Virus record (IMG/VR): IMGVR_UViG_2630968808_000006
Length of the DNA: 4,298 bases
Strand: one strand, 5' to 3'
Source: a virus
Lineage: Duplodnaviria; Heunggongvirae; Uroviricota; Caudoviricetes
Shown: positions 1 through 4,298 of the stretch, piece by piece
Numbering within the stretch: position 1 is the stretch's first letter
Layout of the letters: each line of letters starts with the position of its first letter
The notes under the pieces: model-generated
What the model was told of the DNA's origin: nothing
What the model saw: the letters and a program-made list of their open reading frames with translations, nothing else
Databases searched by the model: none
Translations under genes and position numbers: made by a program

Positions 1-615
1 GTGAGCGAAATTAATTACCAGGCACTGCGTGAAAAGGCAGAAAAAGCAACGAGTGGTGTGTGGTCGCTCGAATATGGAGATGGCCGATTTGATGGTGATG
101 ATGCACTAATTCATCGCGAGGCTGCTGGATATATTCCCATTTGCAGAATTGAAGGAGCGCATCCTGAAAGCGGTTTCGATGAAGATTTCCAAATAGAACA
201 GCAGGCCAATGCTGAATTCATCGCCGCAGCCAATCCGGCTACCGTGCTGGCACTACTGGATGAACGGGAAAGAAACCAGCAATACATCAAACGCCGCGAC
301 CAGGAGAACGAGGATATTGCGCTAACGGTAGGGAAGCTGCGTGTTGAGCTGGAAGCAGCAGAGAACAACCTTATTGATAGTGAATGCCATGTTGCTGAAC
401 TGGAAGAAGCGCTACGCGATAAGCAGGCGTTACTTGAAGCCTCAGAAAAGCGCATAGCAGAACTGGAAGCGCGGGAAATACTGCTCCCGGAACGTAGCAG
501 CATGCTTCATCGAACAGATTTTCACGAGGATTATCAAACGGTAATGGCATACAAAGTTTCTGAAGTCATCGCTGCAATCCGCGCCGCAGGCATTCGCATC
601 AAAGAAGGTGAGTAA
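1..615 (+). CDS. ea22: Ea22-like early-left accessory protein (204 aa) with a central coiled-coil
   Basis: ORF opens with GTG at window position 1 and translates MSEINYQALRE...; central block LLDERERNQQYIKRRDQENEDIALTVGKLRVELE and C-terminal AGIRIK.GE match what I recall of lambda Ea22; heptad-like E/A/L-rich centre; sits upstream of xis/int as in lambdoid phages. Start coincides with the window edge, so the true N-terminus could lie upstream. Confidence 0.8.
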   Translation: MSEINYQALREKAEKATSGVWSLEYGDGRFDGDDALIHREAAGYIPICRIEGAHPESGFDEDFQIEQQANAEFIAAANPATVLALLDERERNQQYIKRRDQENEDIALTVGKLRVELEAAENNLIDSECHVAELEEALRDKQALLEASEKRIAELEAREILLPERSSMLHRTDFHEDYQTVMAYKVSEVIAAIRAAGIRIKEGE

Positions 616-791
616 TGCGTGTGGCATGTATCGGCTTGTTACCGTACCCGACTCGTTTTTGGGCTTCTGCGCTAATTGCAAAGCCACATATCCTGATGGC
701 TGACAACATCATCCCGGCACCAAAGCGCCGCCGTACCGGTATTGCAGCGGCACGACGTGCAGCAAAGAAACGCAGGAGAGCAAAACGATGA
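615..791 (+). CDS. small hypothetical protein (58 aa) with a strongly basic Arg/Lys C-terminal tail
   Basis: Not in the supplied ORF track (below its length cutoff); read by hand: ATG at 615 overlaps the ea22 stop (TAATG) and its TGA stop at 789-791 overlaps the next ATG (ATGA). Translation MRVACIGLLPYPTRFWASALIAKPHILMADNIIPAPKRRRTGIAAARRAAKKRRRAKR. GGTGA Shine-Dalgarno-like motif a few nt upstream. Support is overlap geometry only. Confidence 0.4.
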   Translation: MRVACIGLLPYPTRFWASALIAKPHILMADNIIPAPKRRRTGIAAARRAAKKRRRAKR

Positions 792-979
792 AAAACCGTA
801 AAGCAAAGATGCTTATTTCCCGTATATACAGCCGTTGCTATCCCAGCCAGTGGTTGAGAGTTAGCAATCGCCGTATGGTGTTGTACTTATATTCTGGAAT
901 TGCCAGAGAGGGAATCAAAGATAAGCCCAGCGCAGCGCAAAACCGCTGGAAAAACCACTTGCGCACTAAAGGAGAGTAA
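788..979 (+). CDS. hypothetical basic protein (63 aa)
   Basis: ATG at 788 preceded by AGGAGAG (771-780) with about 9 nt spacing; start overlaps the upstream stop (ATGA); its TAA stop (977-979) is 1 nt from the next start. No recognisable domain. Confidence 0.4.
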   Translation: MKNRKAKMLISRIYSRCYPSQWLRVSNRRMVLYLYSGIAREGIKDKPSAAQNRWKNHLRTKGE

Positions 980-980
980 T

Positions 981-1199
981 GTGCCAACATTATTCAGAAA
1001 AGAATATCCGCGAAGAAGTCGAATAACAGAACTCCTGTTTCTCATTCTGTTTATCGTGTTGATGATACCGATATCCCCGCTAATTTTTGTCTGGGCAATC
1101 GGGAAAATAATTGAGCCAGTTATTGAATTGTATAACGACGTGGTATGGGCGTCGTTCAACACTCTGCACAATAAAATTAATCCATATAAGGAAAACTGA
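981..1199 (+). CDS. small single-pass membrane protein (72 aa from the GTG start)
   Basis: GTG at 981 lies 6 nt after GGAG (971-974), in frame with track ORF 900..1199, whose 5' part overlaps the previous ORF in another frame. Product begins (M)PTLFRKEYPRRSR, followed by one hydrophobic stretch LLFLILFIVLMIPISPLIFVWAIG and a ~30-aa polar tail. By hand count about 38% GC versus about 50% in ea22, with rare codons ATA, AGA and CGA. Confidence 0.5.
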   Translation: MPTLFRKEYPRRSRITELLFLILFIVLMIPISPLIFVWAIGKIIEPVIELYNDVVWASFNTLHNKINPYKEN

Positions 1200-1200
1200 A

Positions 1201-1623
1201 ATGACCACCATTACCAGAGAAAGCGCGGAGATTAAATCATTCATCACTGGCTTCCTGAGCGACCCGGCGCACGATAACCAATCATCAAACAGTCTGTTTG
1301 CTGATGTGTTTCGTATCGCGCTGGCCTCGCTGGAAGCAGAACCAGTTGCATGGACTGATGACGAGGAACTGCGAGATGTTGAGCAAATTGGTTTAGGTTA
1401 TTTATTACCTTGTCCTCCAGATAAATACGCAGACCCGCGTCGTGTAATTCCGCTGTATCGTGTGCCGCCAGCTCCCATAGTGCAGGCACAGGGAATTGAG
1501 ATCGCAATAAACGAACTGGTGTCTCTGTCCCCACAGCTGGATAAACGAGCGGTGGAAACTCTTTCTATGGCTGTGGCACATCTACGTAAACTGGTTAAGA
1601 AGCAGTTGCAGGTTAAGGAATGA
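1201..1623 (+). CDS. hypothetical protein (140 aa); N-terminal domain paralogous to that of the next ORF
   Basis: ATG at 1201 preceded by AAGGAA (1188-1193) with 7 nt spacing and placed 1 nt after the upstream stop; the track's longer form from 1111 would overlap the previous gene and lacks an RBS. Shares RIALASLEAEPVA and VIP(L/V)Y..AP motifs with ORF 1627..2475. Confidence 0.65.
   Translation: MTTITRESAEIKSFITGFLSDPAHDNQSSNSLFADVFRIALASLEAEPVAWTDDEELRDVEQIGLGYLLPCPPDKYADPRRVIPLYRVPPAPIVQAQGIEIAINELVSLSPQLDKRAVETLSMAVAHLRKLVKKQLQVKE
1312..1353 (+). repeat. copy 1 of a 42-nt in-frame direct repeat encoding RIALASLEAEPVAW
   Basis: CGTATCGCGCTGGCCTCGCTGGAAGCAGAACCAGTTGCATGG; about 33/42 nt identical to 1717..1758, with most differences at codon third positions. 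Confidence 0.7.
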
Positions 1624-1626
1624 CAC

Positions 1627-2475
1627 ATGAACGCTATCACCAAAGAACGTATTGAATTGTTCATTAAAAATCCGCTTGATAACGGGCTTACCCGTGGCGA
1701 ACAAATGGAACTGGCACGAATTGCACTGGCATCACTGGAAGCAGAGCCAGTTGCTTATATTTTCAAACATCCGGCCGGAAAATTATTCTGGGCTTTGACG
1801 GATGAAAGCAATAAAGATCAATCGGACGTTATTCCTGTTTATGCTGCCGCGCCTGCGTCGGTTGTGCCGGATAATGCATCAGAGCCTCTTGCTTATGCTT
1901 ACAAAGAGCTTACGCCTGAGATTATGCGCAACCATTTAGCTGTATTCGAGCGATATGGAATAGCACCAAACGATAGCTCTACCACAATTCAGGCACTGCG
2001 AATCGCGCTGGATGGCATAGAGCGGAGCGACGCCATGCTTCATGGTGCCGAAACTGTAAGCCAAACTTACAAGTTGCCAGTTAATACACCTTGCCAAGAT
2101 GCGCCAGCCCATATCTGGCTGCAAACGGCTGGAGTATGGCCAGAAGATGGCGAGTTAAGCGAATTAACGTGGTGCAGCCACAATCAGCACCATGATGACA
2201 CGCTATATGTTCGAGCTGACCTTGTGAATGGCAACTCTCCGGTAACTACGGATGGTTGGATAAGCTGTAGTGAGAGAATGCCTGAAAAGAACCAGAACGT
2301 GCTTATTTCGGTGAATTTCGATAGTGATCTGGTTGAGCCGCTAATATGCTCCGCACGCTATACCGGAAGTACATTCCGGCGTGGAGGTGTAACGGTTATG
2401 CCAGGTAATGGTATTGAGCAAGCAACTCACTGGATGCCGCTACCGGAACCGCCGCAGGAGGTAAACCGTGGCTAA
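1627..2475 (+). CDS. prophage protein (282 aa) with a DUF551-like C-terminal domain (Eaa-type)
   Basis: ATG at 1627 preceded by AAGGAA (1615-1620). C-terminus DGWISCSERMPEKNQNVLISV...ATHWMPLPEPP resembles the W...P...THWMPLPEPP signature I associate with DUF551 enterobacterial prophage proteins (recalled, not searched). N-terminal domain is paralogous to ORF 1201..1623. Confidence 0.75.
   Translation: MNAITKERIELFIKNPLDNGLTRGEQMELARIALASLEAEPVAYIFKHPAGKLFWALTDESNKDQSDVIPVYAAAPASVVPDNASEPLAYAYKELTPEIMRNHLAVFERYGIAPNDSSTTIQALRIALDGIERSDAMLHGAETVSQTYKLPVNTPCQDAPAHIWLQTAGVWPEDGELSELTWCSHNQHHDDTLYVRADLVNGNSPVTTDGWISCSERMPEKNQNVLISVNFDSDLVEPLICSARYTGSTFRRGGVTVMPGNGIEQATHWMPLPEPPQEVNRG
1717..1758 (+). 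repeat. copy 2 of the 42-nt in-frame direct repeat encoding RIALASLEAEPVAY
   Basis: CGAATTGCACTGGCATCACTGGAAGCAGAGCCAGTTGCTTAT, 405 nt downstream of copy 1; a partial third copy CGAATCGCGCTGG at 1999-2011 encodes RIALDGIE within the same gene. Confidence 0.7.
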
Positions 2476-2752
2476 CCTGCAACTTGCTGTCAAAGGTGAA
2501 TACTTCGATGCCATGATTCGCGGGGAGAAAACGGAAGAGTATCGCCTGTGTAATGACTACTGGAAAAAGCGCCTCGTTAACCGTAAGTATGACCGCCTGA
2601 TTATCACAAAGGGATATCCGAAGCGCGACGATTCCAGCCGTAGAATTGATGTTCCGTATGACGGATATGAAATCAAGACAATCACACATCCGCACTTCGG
2701 CGATAAACCGGTAAAGGTGTTCGCGATAAAGGTGAATATCAGCAATGAATAA
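2468..2752 (+). CDS. 94-aa ASCH/PUA-like (DUF3850-like) small protein in the slot lambda uses for ea8.5
   Basis: GTG at 2468 preceded by AGGAGG (2456-2461) with 6 nt spacing; overlaps the upstream stop by 8 nt (GTGGCTAA). N-terminus LQLAVKGEYFDAMIRGEKTEEYR fits the ASCH-type pattern (L.L....YF.A...G.KT.E.R). Only one Cys, so probably not the zinc-binding lambda Ea8.5 fold. Confidence 0.65.
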   Translation: MANLQLAVKGEYFDAMIRGEKTEEYRLCNDYWKKRLVNRKYDRLIITKGYPKRDDSSRRIDVPYDGYEIKTITHPHFGDKPVKVFAIKVNISNE

Positions 2753-2785
2753 CAATCCTCGCACTCGCGGGGATTTCTTTTATCT

Positions 2786-2812
2786 GAACTCGCTACGGCG
2801 GGTTTTGTTTTA
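2786..2812 (+). terminator. weak hairpin plus U-rich tract after the 94-aa ORF (possible attenuator)
   Basis: CTCGC (2789-2793), loop TACG, GCGGG (2798-2802) with one G-U pair, followed by TTTTGTTTTAT. Short stem, interrupted T-run. Confidence 0.2.
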
Positions 2813-2824
2813 TGGAGATGATAA

Positions 2825-2992
2825 ATGCACTTCCGAGTCACAGGTGAATGGAATGGAGAGCCATTCAACAGAGTTATCGAAGCAGAGGACATCAACGACT
2901 GCTATAACCACTGGATGATATGGGCGCAGATAGCGCATGCAGACGTAACCAATATTCGAATTGAAGAACTGAAAGAACACCAAGCCGCCTGA
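2825..2992 (+). CDS. 55-aa hypothetical protein, positional equivalent of the small ORF between ea8.5 and xis in lambda
   Basis: Not in the ORF track (below its length cutoff); read by hand: ATG at 2825 is 7 nt after GGAG (2814-2817); translation MHFRVTGEWNGEPFNRVIEAEDINDCYNHWMIWAQIAHADVTNIRIEELKEHQAA; TGA stop (2990-2992) lies in the loop of the terminator hairpin. Distance to xis and int matches my recollection of the lambda map. Confidence 0.55.
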   Translation: MHFRVTGEWNGEPFNRVIEAEDINDCYNHWMIWAQIAHADVTNIRIEELKEHQAA

Positions 2993-3004
2993 TGGCGGTT
3001 TTTT
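2982..3004 (+). terminator. Rho-independent terminator (GC stem, UGAU loop, T6 tail)
   Basis: GCCGCC (2984-2989), loop TGAT (2990-2993), GGCGG (2994-2998) giving 5 G-C pairs plus flanking G-U and A-U pairs, followed by six T (2999-3004). On the minus strand the stem is followed by non-T sequence, so it is + strand specific. Confidence 0.6.
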
Positions 3005-3005
3005 C

Positions 3006-3045
3006 TTGCGTGTAATTGCGGAGACTTTGCGATGTACTTAACACT
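3006..3045 (+). promoter_or_regulatory. cII-activated pI-type promoter: TTGC-N6-TTGC box flanking the -35, with the -10 and start point inside the first codons of xis
   Basis: TTGC (3006-3009), GTGTAA, TTGC (3016-3019) is the tetranucleotide direct repeat recognised by lambda CII at pRE, pI and paQ; it lies about 13-26 nt upstream of the xis ATG (3032), matching the lambda pI arrangement. The -10 hexamer is not unambiguous (candidates TGTACT or TACTTA around 3033-3040). Confidence 0.6.
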
Positions 3046-3250
3046 TCAGGAGTGGAACGCACGCCAGCGGCGCCCAAGAAGCCTTGAAACAGTTCGTCGA
3101 TGGGTACGCGAGTGCAGGATATTCCCTCCTCCGGTTAAGGATGGAAGAGAGTATCTGTTCCACGAATCAGCGGTAAAGGTTGACTTAAATCGACCAGTAA
3201 CAGGTAGCCTTTTGAAGAGGATCAGAAATGGGAAGAAGGCGAAGTCATGA
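3032..3250 (+). CDS. xis: excisionase Xis (72 aa), lambda type
   Basis: ATG at 3032 is 8 nt after GGAG (3020-3023); product MYLTLQEWNARQRRPRSLETVRRWVRECRIFPPPVKDGREYLFHESAVKVDLNRPVTGSLLKRIRNGKKAKS matches lambda Xis as I recall it; overlaps int by 23 nt as in lambda. Confidence 0.95.
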   Translation: MYLTLQEWNARQRRPRSLETVRRWVRECRIFPPPVKDGREYLFHESAVKVDLNRPVTGSLLKRIRNGKKAKS

Positions 3251-4298
3251 GCGCCGGGATTTACCCCCTAACCTTTATATAAGAAACAATGGATATTACT
3301 GCTACAGGGACCCAAGGACGGGTAAAGAGTTTGGATTAGGCCGAGACAGGCGAATCGCAATCACTGAAGCTATACAGGCCAACATTGAGTTATTTTCAGG
3401 ACACAAACACAAGCCTCTGACAGCGAGAATCAACAGTGATAATTCTGTTACGTTACATTCATGGCTTGATCGCTACGAAAAAATCCTCGCCAGCAGAGGA
3501 ATCAAGCAGAAGACACTCATAAATTACATGAGCAAAATTAAAGCAATAAGGAGGGGTCTGCCTGATGCTCCACTTGAAGACATCACCACAAAAGAAATTG
3601 CGGCAATGCTCAATGGATACATAGACGAGGGCAAGGCGGCGTCAGCCAAGTTAATCAGATCAACACTGAGCGATGCATTCCGAGAGGCAATAGCTGAAGG
3701 CCATATAACAACAAACCCGGTCGCTGCCACTCGCGCAGCAAAATCAGAGGTAAGGAGATCAAGACTTACGGCTGACGAATACCTGAAAATTTATCAAGCA
3801 GCAGAATCATCACCATGTTGGCTTAGACTTGCAATGGAACTGGCTGTTGTTACCGGGCAGCGAGTTGGTGATTTATGCGAAATGAAGTGGTCTGATATCA
3901 TAGATGGCTATCTTTATGTCGAGCAAAGCAAAACCGGCGTAAAAATTGCCATCCCAACAACATTGCATGTTGATGCTCTTGGGATATCAATGAAGGAAAC
4001 ACTTGATAAATGCAAAGAGATTCTTGGCGGAGAAACCATAATTGCATCTACTCGTCGTGAACCGCTTTCATCCGGCACAGTATCAAGGTATTTTATGCGC
4101 GCACGAAAAGCATCAGGTCTTTCCTTCGAAGGGGATCCGCCTACCTTTCACGAGTTGCGCAGTTTGTCTGCAAGACTCTATGAGAAGCAGATAAGCGATA
4201 AGTTTGCTCAACATCTTCTCGGGCATAAGTCGGACACCATGGCATCACAGTATCGTGATGACAGAGGCAGGGAGTGGGACAAAATTGAAATCAAATAA
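3228..4298 (+). CDS. int: tyrosine site-specific integrase Int (356 aa), lambda type
   Basis: N-terminal arm-binding region MGRRRSHERRDLPPNLYIRNNGYYCYRDPRTGKEFGLG; catalytic residues at lambda Int positions: R in VTGQRVGDL (R212), H308-x-x-R311 in TFHELRSL, H333 and Y342 in LLGHKSDTMASQY (positions counted from the translation). GAGG RBS 7 nt upstream. Complete ORF ending TAA at 4296-4298. Confidence 0.97.
   Translation: MGRRRSHERRDLPPNLYIRNNGYYCYRDPRTGKEFGLGRDRRIAITEAIQANIELFSGHKHKPLTARINSDNSVTLHSWLDRYEKILASRGIKQKTLINYMSKIKAIRRGLPDAPLEDITTKEIAAMLNGYIDEGKAASAKLIRSTLSDAFREAIAEGHITTNPVAATRAAKSEVRRSRLTADEYLKIYQAAESSPCWLRLAMELAVVTGQRVGDLCEMKWSDIIDGYLYVEQSKTGVKIAIPTTLHVDALGISMKETLDKCKEILGGETIIASTRREPLSSGTVSRYFMRARKASGLSFEGDPPTFHELRSLSARLYEKQISDKFAQHLLGHKSDTMASQYRDDRGREWDKIEIK

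Follow-up and report, generated by a model that had tools for sequence, protein, structure and literature searches.

Do the 58 codons lying between an ea22-like gene and the next small gene in the early-left region of a lambdoid prophage form a genuine gene, and which role could be played by the strongly basic peptide they encode? We addressed this question for a stretch of 4298 bases of the IMG/VR virus record IMGVR_UViG_2630968808_000006 (Caudoviricetes), in the following called the window, which represents the early-left end (exo-xis to int) of such a prophage in the direction of pL transcription. The open reading frame (ORF), extending from ATG 615-617 to TGA 789-791, is translated to MRVACIGLLPYPTRFWASALIAKPHILMADNIIPAPKRRRTGIAAARRAAKKRRRAKR and was proposed earlier, by an inspection of the DNA letters without database searches (the sequence-only reading), as a genuine, unlisted gene encoding a tail suited to binding nucleic acids or membrane surfaces. 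We show the 58-aa ORF to be a real gene under purifying selection, the evidence being decisive for its C-terminal tail, and we show that selection acts on this tail at the amino-acid level. We tentatively suggest that the tail forms a helix acting in trans on a polyanionic partner.

Selection on the reading frame

Taken alone, an open frame of this length is weak evidence of coding, the chance of 58 open codons being ~0.04 at the base composition of the window, and phage operons commonly contain 4-base overlaps. The stop/start overlaps TAATG and ATGA were both present on the two sides of the ORF as the sequence-only reading had described them (Table 1), and its view of a genuine ORF holds as far as coding is concerned, whereas the overlaps by themselves, considered there as unlikely by chance, and the frame length carry little weight. 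Since the frame length is only mildly unlikely and the overlaps are routine, the case for a gene rests on the comparison with relatives.

We aligned 37 distinct intact DNA versions of the ORF by codons and pooled the ratio of nonsynonymous to synonymous differences per site (pN/pS) from eight sequences spanning the divergent groups. Within codons 37-48, encoding K-R-R-(H)-T-G-I-A-A-A-R-R, the variable sites are distributed over the three codon positions as 2/2/11 of 12 (P = 2.3e-5) and pN/pS is 0.027, compared to 0.09 for codons 37-58, at a pS of about 0.5. Synonymous arginine changes between CGN and AGA occur among codons 37-48, and the synonymous sites of the tail are nearly saturated, with hardly any replacement of amino acids. 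Third-position variation, which the sequence-only reading had pointed to as informative, follows this frame. The N-terminal ~35 codons, showing a pN/pS of 0.64 and variable sites of 28/23/32, are weakly constrained and fast-evolving. All insertions and deletions among intact copies are multiples of three, one case being the loss of 7 codons in 933W and further Shiga toxin (Stx) phages.

The junction between ea22 and the ORF was inspected in 84 loci and reads either TAATG or TAGTG, the latter with stop TAG and start GTG, so that both signals survive. These loci had been picked by a tail-peptide search and the count of 84/84 intact copies was discarded as biased; the count was therefore repeated on a frame-blind sample, which was anchored on nothing but the initial 19 bases of the gene downstream and comprised 102 usable sites. 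All copies of the ORF in this sample were intact (53/53), 51 of them ending in ATGA and 2, representing a 57-aa version, with TGA directly before ATG, and no frameshifted copy was found among the 102 sites. The other sites comprise 24 second copies of a tandem gene pair downstream (the MKNRKAK pair described below), ~9 clean deletions and, for the rest, unrelated upstream genes.

These data bear on the explanation that the ORF has no function, being either a frame left open by chance or a remnant in decay that is conserved only through its location in a recombination linker between mosaic modules. Near-identity of the DNA among relatives extends over the final ~30 nucleotides (nt) of the ORF and ~20 nt into the one that follows, as at a module boundary, frameshifted and deleted alleles circulate, and the Prokaryotic Genome Annotation Pipeline (PGAP) leaves some copies unannotated, all of which would fit such a remnant. 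However, homogenisation of DNA cannot yield 11/12 variable third positions at 2/12 variable first and 2/12 variable second positions, nor the CGN/AGA arginine changes, and relatives from Klebsiella, Enterobacter and Citrobacter retain the tail with different codons and neighbours, a start and a Shine-Dalgarno (SD) sequence being present in every context. We regard an ORF devoid of function as very improbable.

Annotation and occurrence

The designation as unlisted applies to the list of ORFs supplied with the window, while the gene is annotated in phiV10, in RefSeq E. coli genomes and in PHROGs. The protein matches the PHROG 13831 profile with an E-value of 5.8e-40, residues 1-58 aligning to positions 1-58 of 58. 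The phiV10 equivalent PhiV10p49 (YP_512304.1) comprises 177 bases, is encoded after an Ead/Ea22-like gene and is overlapped by both neighbours; the RefSeq E. coli equivalent is WP_001261532.1 and the UniProt entry A0A1U9XFV6, all of them named 'hypothetical protein'. NCBI holds the exact window protein under the same name, within a 90%-identity cluster of n=290, one member of which is found on at least 1000 contigs. The gene is thus already catalogued as a hypothetical protein and its novelty is low; new here are the tail-only selection pattern, the wider family sharing the tail and a number of side observations.

A total of 475/5426 complete E. coli genomes carry the DNA of the ORF; of its 543 places, 216 are on plasmids of P1-like size, and the carrier elements are lambdoid, Mu-like, phiV10-like and P1-like. 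Annotation by PGAP is patchy, several copies being listed as 'none', among them that of the outbreak strain O104:H4 2011C-3493, and the ORF is present in 933W, the original record of which has no annotation for the frame. A first search for relatives resulted in 93 protein clusters and an exhaustive profile search in 258, while a one-genome-per-species contig scan with tail-peptide patterns yielded 235 pattern matches and 0 confirmed relatives. The 58-aa protein matched no family in Pfam (E up to 0.1), NCBIfam and PADLOC (E up to 1), no relative was found among PDB sequences (best E 0.28), and comparing the window with Rfam (E up to 1) gave no RNA family. Searching the literature by accessions, locus tag, peptide and PHROG id retrieved no paper on the gene, and the ORF goes unmentioned in the papers on exo-xis.

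Conservation of the basic tail

The 58-aa protein has a net charge of about +14.6 and an isoelectric point (pI) of 12. The sequence-only reading had counted 13 Lys/Arg in the last 22 residues, which is borne out for the tail PKRRRTGIAAARRAAKKRRRAKR, the string it quoted having 23 residues, and had described the following ORF as strongly basic as well, in agreement with a pI of 11.05 and a net charge of +12.6 for its 63-aa product. Residues 41-55 of the window protein, TGIAAARRAAKKRRR, correspond to the consensus of 130 cluster representatives, T-G-I-A-A-A-R-R-A-A-K-K-R-R-R-[ATS]-[KR]-[R...], and the protein conforms to the motif T-G-[IV]-A-A-A-[RK]-R-[AE]-A-K-[KR]-R-R-R. The identity of Lys versus Arg is position-specific in the tail, and Ala positions which were left free in the search pattern are kept in 112-130 of 130 representatives.

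AlphaFold2 (AF2) predicts a non-globular protein of a mean predicted local distance difference test (pLDDT) score of 66, in which a helix formed by residues 40-57 is the one confident element (pLDDT about 80), pLDDT being 56-64 in the N-terminal part. Two models, one for the window type and one for a Klebsiella type described below, are both non-globular with a pLDDT of 66-67 and a predicted template modelling score (pTM) of 0.28-0.29. A Thr is located at the start of the predicted tail helix, and a helical wheel places Ala/Ile on one face and basic residues exclusively on the opposite one.

At its 3' end the tail meets the signals for the next gene. The DNA of codons 53-55 (CGC AGG AGA), containing the AGGAG of the downstream SD sequence, is invariant and that of the last ~7 tail codons (K-R-R-R-A-K-R) nearly invariant; the AGGAG stretch is also kept in alleles in which the ORF is deleted and in distant relatives with a different downstream gene. 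The basic residues at codons 53-55, and possibly those in the codons after, are constrained at the DNA level and not free to vary. An RNA element at this conserved junction was considered and ruled out (z-score 0.38, 0/18 pairs covarying); an RNA fold does not explain the conservation of the tail.

This arrangement is the basis of a further explanation, according to which the ORF would act mainly in cis, either by coupling its translation to the downstream start or by a nascent polybasic peptide tuning termination and re-initiation, the free peptide having no role. The overlaps with the neighbours on both sides in nearly all contexts, the position of the downstream AGGAG inside invariant codons and a layout of hydrophobic N-terminus, conserved C-terminal peptide and downstream gene, which recalls the SecM, MifM and VemP leaders, would be in line with such a role. 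Yet codons 37-48, being under the strongest protein-level constraint (pN/pS 0.03), are located 40-70 nt upstream of the next start and thereby outside the initiation region, and the downstream gene is found without the ORF at about a quarter of the first-copy sites with its SD sequence still there, so that coupling is not required. Furthermore, no RNA structure hides the SD sequence (z-score 0.38, no covarying pairs), a ribosome paused at the end of the ORF would cover rather than expose the next start, the downstream gene varies across the family and known arrest motifs are absent. A predominantly cis-acting ORF is therefore quite unlikely in our judgement. Features of a ribosome-arrest leader were looked for and not found, the junction showing no significant fold and no covarying pair and the SD sequence being inside the ORF.

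The N-terminal part and the wider family

Trp16 and Pro34 are the main fixed points of the N-terminal part. In the window protein this part starts with MR, followed by VACIGLLPYP and TRFW, and its best 19-residue Kyte-Doolittle window of 1.24 is interrupted by Pro and Arg, whereas a signal peptide would have an unbroken hydrophobic stretch of about 10-15 residues and a membrane span one of about 19. More distant relatives, identified by the exhaustive profile search in prophages of Klebsiella, Enterobacter and Citrobacter, keep the tail TGIAAARRAAKKRRR, and a comparison of the E. coli group with the Klebsiella group by hhalign resulted in a probability of 98.9%. These relatives begin in a signal-peptide-like manner with MKRTSIALAVMAGTLASVKSW..., i.e. 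MKR and a 13-residue hydrophobic h-region with a 12-residue hydropathy of about 2.0, for which AF2 predicts a helix of residues 3-16.

The N-terminal part raises the possibility of a small membrane-associated or exported peptide. Its N-terminal part would insert into or target the inner membrane, and the polybasic helix would lie on acidic phospholipids at the cytoplasmic face or be exported as a cationic peptide, thereby modulating cell division, transport, superinfection exclusion or membrane integrity. The classic n-region and h-region of the distant relatives with their predicted helix, a Trp following the hydrophobic stretch throughout the family, and an N-terminal part which changes fast yet stays hydrophobic, as signal or anchor sequences do, point into this direction; the sole weak match in the PDB (E 0.28) is a membrane-spanning light-harvesting alpha subunit, and the neighbourhood has host-takeover peptides such as Kil. 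Conversely, the low hydropathy of the window subgroup, with Pro-Tyr-Pro and Arg inside the stretch, and variants without a basic n-region (MQVAF...) do not fit well, the Ala-containing non-basic face of the tail helix would be poor for lipid insertion, and the position-specific identity of Lys and Arg is unexpected for plain electrostatic binding of lipids. We consider a membrane role possible and nearly as likely as the nucleic acid-binding role discussed below; the two ideas can coexist.

The genes surrounding the tail differ. In Escherichia and Salmonella the ORF follows ea22 in lambdoid exo-xis regions, lies in nin regions that have no ea22 (loci L085-L087), and is also part of Mu-like early regions close to gemA and mor (L084, L091), of phiV10 and of P1-like phage-plasmids, so that the same tail is preceded by ea22, by Mu-like early genes or by none of these, while the MKNRKAK ORF, named after the start of its product, always follows it in these phages. 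The distant relatives overlap a TraR/DksA-family gene, which is a homologue of lambda Orf73, an HNH_3 gene or another gene. An SD-like element precedes the start in all genomic contexts seen, those with different upstream genes included; within the window, the last codons of ea22 (K-E-G-E, then TAA) hold this ribosome-binding site. The ORF consequently behaves as a portable mini-gene having its ribosome-binding site at the 5' end and supplying that of the next gene at its 3' end, and the presence of the same tail between different neighbours on both sides argues for a trans-acting module rather than a spacer.

In the loci of Klebsiella, Enterobacter and Citrobacter (L219-L222, ~3906-4000) we observed a terminator-like hairpin with a U-run and a conserved leader, ttcaccttcaaccg.attaaccgacagttc.gggag, before the polybasic ORF. 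In lambda (L098 2915-3016, minus strand) a peptide of a 31-aa ORF upstream of orf73 resembles, as judged by eye, the translation of that leader. The small ORF looks like an insertion between the leader and orf73, which the leader appears to abut directly in lambda.

A model for the function of the protein

We propose a model, to which we assign a probability of about 0.35, according to which the 58-aa ORF encodes a trans-acting early protein whose arginine-rich helix would bind a polyanion, most likely nucleic acid (RNA or DNA). The gene would be read from the polycistronic pL (exo-xis) transcript via its own SD sequence, its stop overlapping the next start. The first ~36 residues, fast-evolving, hydrophobic and signal-like, would probably provide localisation or partner specificity, and the last ~20 residues, a near-invariant amphipathic helix (T-G-I-A-A-A-R-R-A-A-K-K-R-R-R-A-K-R), would be the working part, docking in trans on a conserved polyanionic target in the manner of arginine-rich-motif (ARM) peptides. 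We infer this binding, its target and an effect on phage or host from the sequence and the predicted helix. Nucleic acid is favoured as the partner because basic and small residues are position-specific, the non-basic face is rich in Ala and the tail is constant across phage types. The position-specific conservation of Lys/Arg and Ala, the Thr at the helix start and the opposition of an Ala/Ile to a basic face fit docking to a macromolecule better than insertion into lipid.

Several points weigh against this model. The likeness to arginine-rich motifs appears to be one of composition and predicted helix, without homology to characterised proteins, and the hydrophobic, signal-peptide-like N-terminus of the distant relatives points at least equally to the membrane or envelope. 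The basic residues of the last ~7 codons cannot count as separate evidence, since the DNA there is fixed and overlaps with the ribosome-binding site for the gene downstream. A search by protein similarity, as used to find the divergent homologues, favours conserved tails; this bias alone cannot create saturated synonymous change without replacements, and the frame-blind sample agrees. Finally, the tail is disrupted in about 19/93 protein clusters, mostly singletons, an allele with a one-base deletion (P0070) occurs on about 95 contigs in two prophage backgrounds, and clean deletions account for about 9/102 anchor sites. Conservation of the frame and of its junctions in relatives, proposed by the sequence-only reading as a check, is found, with in-frame indels among the intact copies; a minority of the syntenic relatives carry the ORF in a frameshifted or cleanly deleted form, on account of which the gene is dispensable, as accessory prophage genes usually are.

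Loci L096 and L097 (3001-3186) carry the same one-base deletion, CCCGGCACC to CCCGCACC, and have different integrases and recombination modules, which suggests that the disrupted allele has moved by recombination and did not originate twice. The clean deletion alleles (L100, L104, L110, L120, L123, L134, L145, L171 and L175; about 200 nt before the start of the MKNRKAK ORF) fuse the last part of the ea22-like gene, ...ATCAAAGGAG, directly to ACGCAGGAGAGCAAAACGATG, the whole 58-aa ORF being gone; the downstream SD sequence is kept and the ea22 frame runs on to ...KGDAGEQNDEKP before it stops.

A more far-reaching version of the proposal, which we consider unlikely, describes the tail helix as a portable effector module with interchangeable hydrophobic leaders, placed before early genes (the MKNRKAK ORF, Orf73/TraR, HNH) and directed against one conserved host target. 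Such a module would tether RNA or DNA to the membrane or block a ribosomal, RNA-polymerase or nucleoid component. If true, it would represent a widespread family of host-takeover or anti-defence peptides, not recognised before and carried by about 9% of the complete E. coli genomes.

Organisation of the early-left operon

The genes of the window are packed tightly, with stops and starts mostly overlapping or abutting (Table 1). No promoter-like sites and no terminator-like sites on the + strand were found in window 1-1400, and the 58-aa ORF would therefore be expressed from a polycistronic early transcript.

Table 1. Coordinates of genes and sequence signals in the 4298-base window
Feature	Coordinates	Strand	Basis or remark
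ea22-like gene (204 aa)	1-615	+	Pfam Ead_Ea22 E 4.6e-35; ORF list
SD-like GAAGGTGA for the 58-aa ORF	604-611	+	read from sequence; AAAGGAGGTGAGTAATG / AAAGGAGGTGA in most relatives
TAATG stop/start overlap	613-617	+	ea22 TAA 613-615 shares bases with ATG 615-617
58-aa ORF including stop codon	615-791	+	member of PHROG 13831; equivalent to PhiV10p49, WP_001261532.1
N-terminal part, codons 1-36	615-722	+	variable, moderately hydrophobic, proline-containing; pN/pS, hydropathy, AF2
Arginine/lysine-rich tail KRRRTGIAAARRAAKKRRRAKR, codons 37-58	723-788	+	low pN/pS, family motif, AF2 helix
AGGAG SD sequence of the downstream gene	774-778	+	within CGC AGG AGA (Arg-Arg) of the 58-aa frame, codons 53-55
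ATGA overlap	788-791	+	TGA 789-791 of the 58-aa ORF with ATG 788-790 of the 63-aa ORF
Basic 63-aa ORF (MKNRKAK..., PHROG 1380)	788-979	+	start overlaps the 58-aa ORF by ATGA
DUF4014 gene	981-1199		
140-aa ORF	1201-1623		
DUF551 protein gene (282-aa ORF)	1627-2475		
ASCH-like ORF	2468-2752		
55-aa ORF	2825-2992		
xis	3032-3250		
int	3228-4298		

The basic 63-aa neighbour, referred to as orf63 in the sequence-only reading, is not lambda Orf63, as it belongs to PHROG 1380 and lambda orf63 is DUF1382. In many relatives this MKNRKAK ORF is present as two tandem overlapping paralogues (L002 4289-4471 and 4468-4659; L001 1674-2044) which agree at the N-terminus (MKNRKAK) and the C-terminus (SAAQNR[WR]K...) but have unrelated middles; the first copy is unannotated in the RefSeq strain SCU-104. 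An obligate two-gene pair of the toxin/antitoxin kind, formed by the 58-aa ORF and the MKNRKAK ORF, was ruled out, as the MKNRKAK gene often occurs without the 58-aa ORF and the wider family pairs otherwise. The prophage of locus L018 contains the two-gene module of 58-aa polybasic ORF and MKNRKAK ORF twice (3001-3350 and 4105-4466, ~1.1 kb apart), the second copy having a different upstream gene which likewise ends in ...KGDE.

All Ea22 proteins are reported to end in a basic residue followed by Gly-Glu ('+GE') of unexplained significance (PMC7093339). The corresponding codons at window 601-617 read AAA GAA GGT GAG TAA TG and in most relatives AAA GGA GGT GAG TAATG, i.e. an SD sequence and the overlapping start of the 58-aa ORF. 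Similarly, the 63-aa ORF ends in K-G-E (window 968-981; AAA GGA GAG TAA) before the GTG start of the DUF4014 gene. It appears that the '+GE' of Ea22 reflects, in frame, the ribosome-binding site which serves the following gene. Lambda lacks the 58-aa ORF, and its ea22 keeps the ending AAAGGAGAGTGA though unrelated sequence and no ORF follows.

Two further observations concern the distal part of the window. Three terminator-like hairpins with U-runs on the + strand, at 2754-2805 and 2982-3001, flank the 55-aa ORF upstream of xis, and 5 terminator-like sites were found on both strands of 2700-3300 compared to 0.5 expected from shuffles; the hairpins around the 55-aa ORF may be terminators of the early-left operon which are read through upon antitermination by N. 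A similar N-terminal segment, M..IT.E......FI.......N........A.IALASLEAEPVA, is common to the 140-aa and the 282-aa ORF and opens a 120-aa ORF in L018 as well; this looks like another shuffled module composed of a conserved N-terminus and variable C-terminal domains, being DUF551 in the longer ORF.

Implications

The exo-xis region affects the lysis-lysogeny decision and hence the release of Shiga toxin in Stx phages, and the work published on it omits the 58-aa ORF. When 'ea22' or the entire region is deleted in Stx phages, the 58-aa gene and its basic neighbour may be disturbed as well, which could confound the phenotypes. The restriction of selection to the tail marks a short peptide that is open to synthesis and direct testing, and the '+GE' motif of the Ea22 proteins is offered a simple explanation. 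Otherwise, this is one more conserved small phage protein without an assigned function.

Relation to characterised systems

The closest equivalents, PHROG 13831, PhiV10p49, WP_001261532.1 and A0A1U9XFV6, belong to the same family with the same position after ea22 and the same 4-base overlaps, differing in few residues, and their entries give no function.

ARM RNA-binding peptides, which form a short Arg-rich alpha-helix, are known from the lambdoid N proteins (lambda, P22, phi21), HK022 Nun and viral Rev/Tat. The 58-aa protein resembles such peptides in its Arg/Lys/Ala composition and a predicted helix, is encoded in a lambdoid early-left operon and shows conservation of specific positions. 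In contrast to N, the motif is C-terminal rather than N-terminal, the protein is too short for the regions by which N (~100 aa) contacts NusA and RNA polymerase, and there is no homology. Membership in the N family was ruled out, the motif being C-terminal and the remainder a hydrophobic segment. No boxB-like target was identified, Rfam giving nothing in the window at E up to 1.

Tiny proteins combining a hydrophobic with a DNA-contacting basic segment are the coat proteins of filamentous phages (fd/M13 pVIII, Pf3 coat) and, likewise, protein J of phiX174. The two-part layout is alike, whereas those proteins are structural components of the virion encoded in late modules and the 58-aa gene is an early accessory gene, and there is no sequence similarity. 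The leaders SecM, MifM and VemP resemble the ORF by a signal- or anchor-like N-terminal part, a conserved C-terminal peptide of ~20 residues and the location next to a downstream gene; they differ in that the 58-aa ORF holds the downstream SD sequence itself, in place of a stem-loop which a stalled ribosome would open, and has a variable downstream gene, no significant RNA fold and no known arrest motif.

The proteins of the lambda exo-xis region (Orf60a, Orf63, Orf61, Orf73/TraR, Ea22 and Ea8.5) are small accessory proteins influencing the lysis-lysogeny decision (PMC8614690, PMC7093339, PMC9239242). The 58-aa protein has no sequence similarity to them and is encoded in the same region with a presumed early timing, its distant relatives directly preceding homologues of Orf73.

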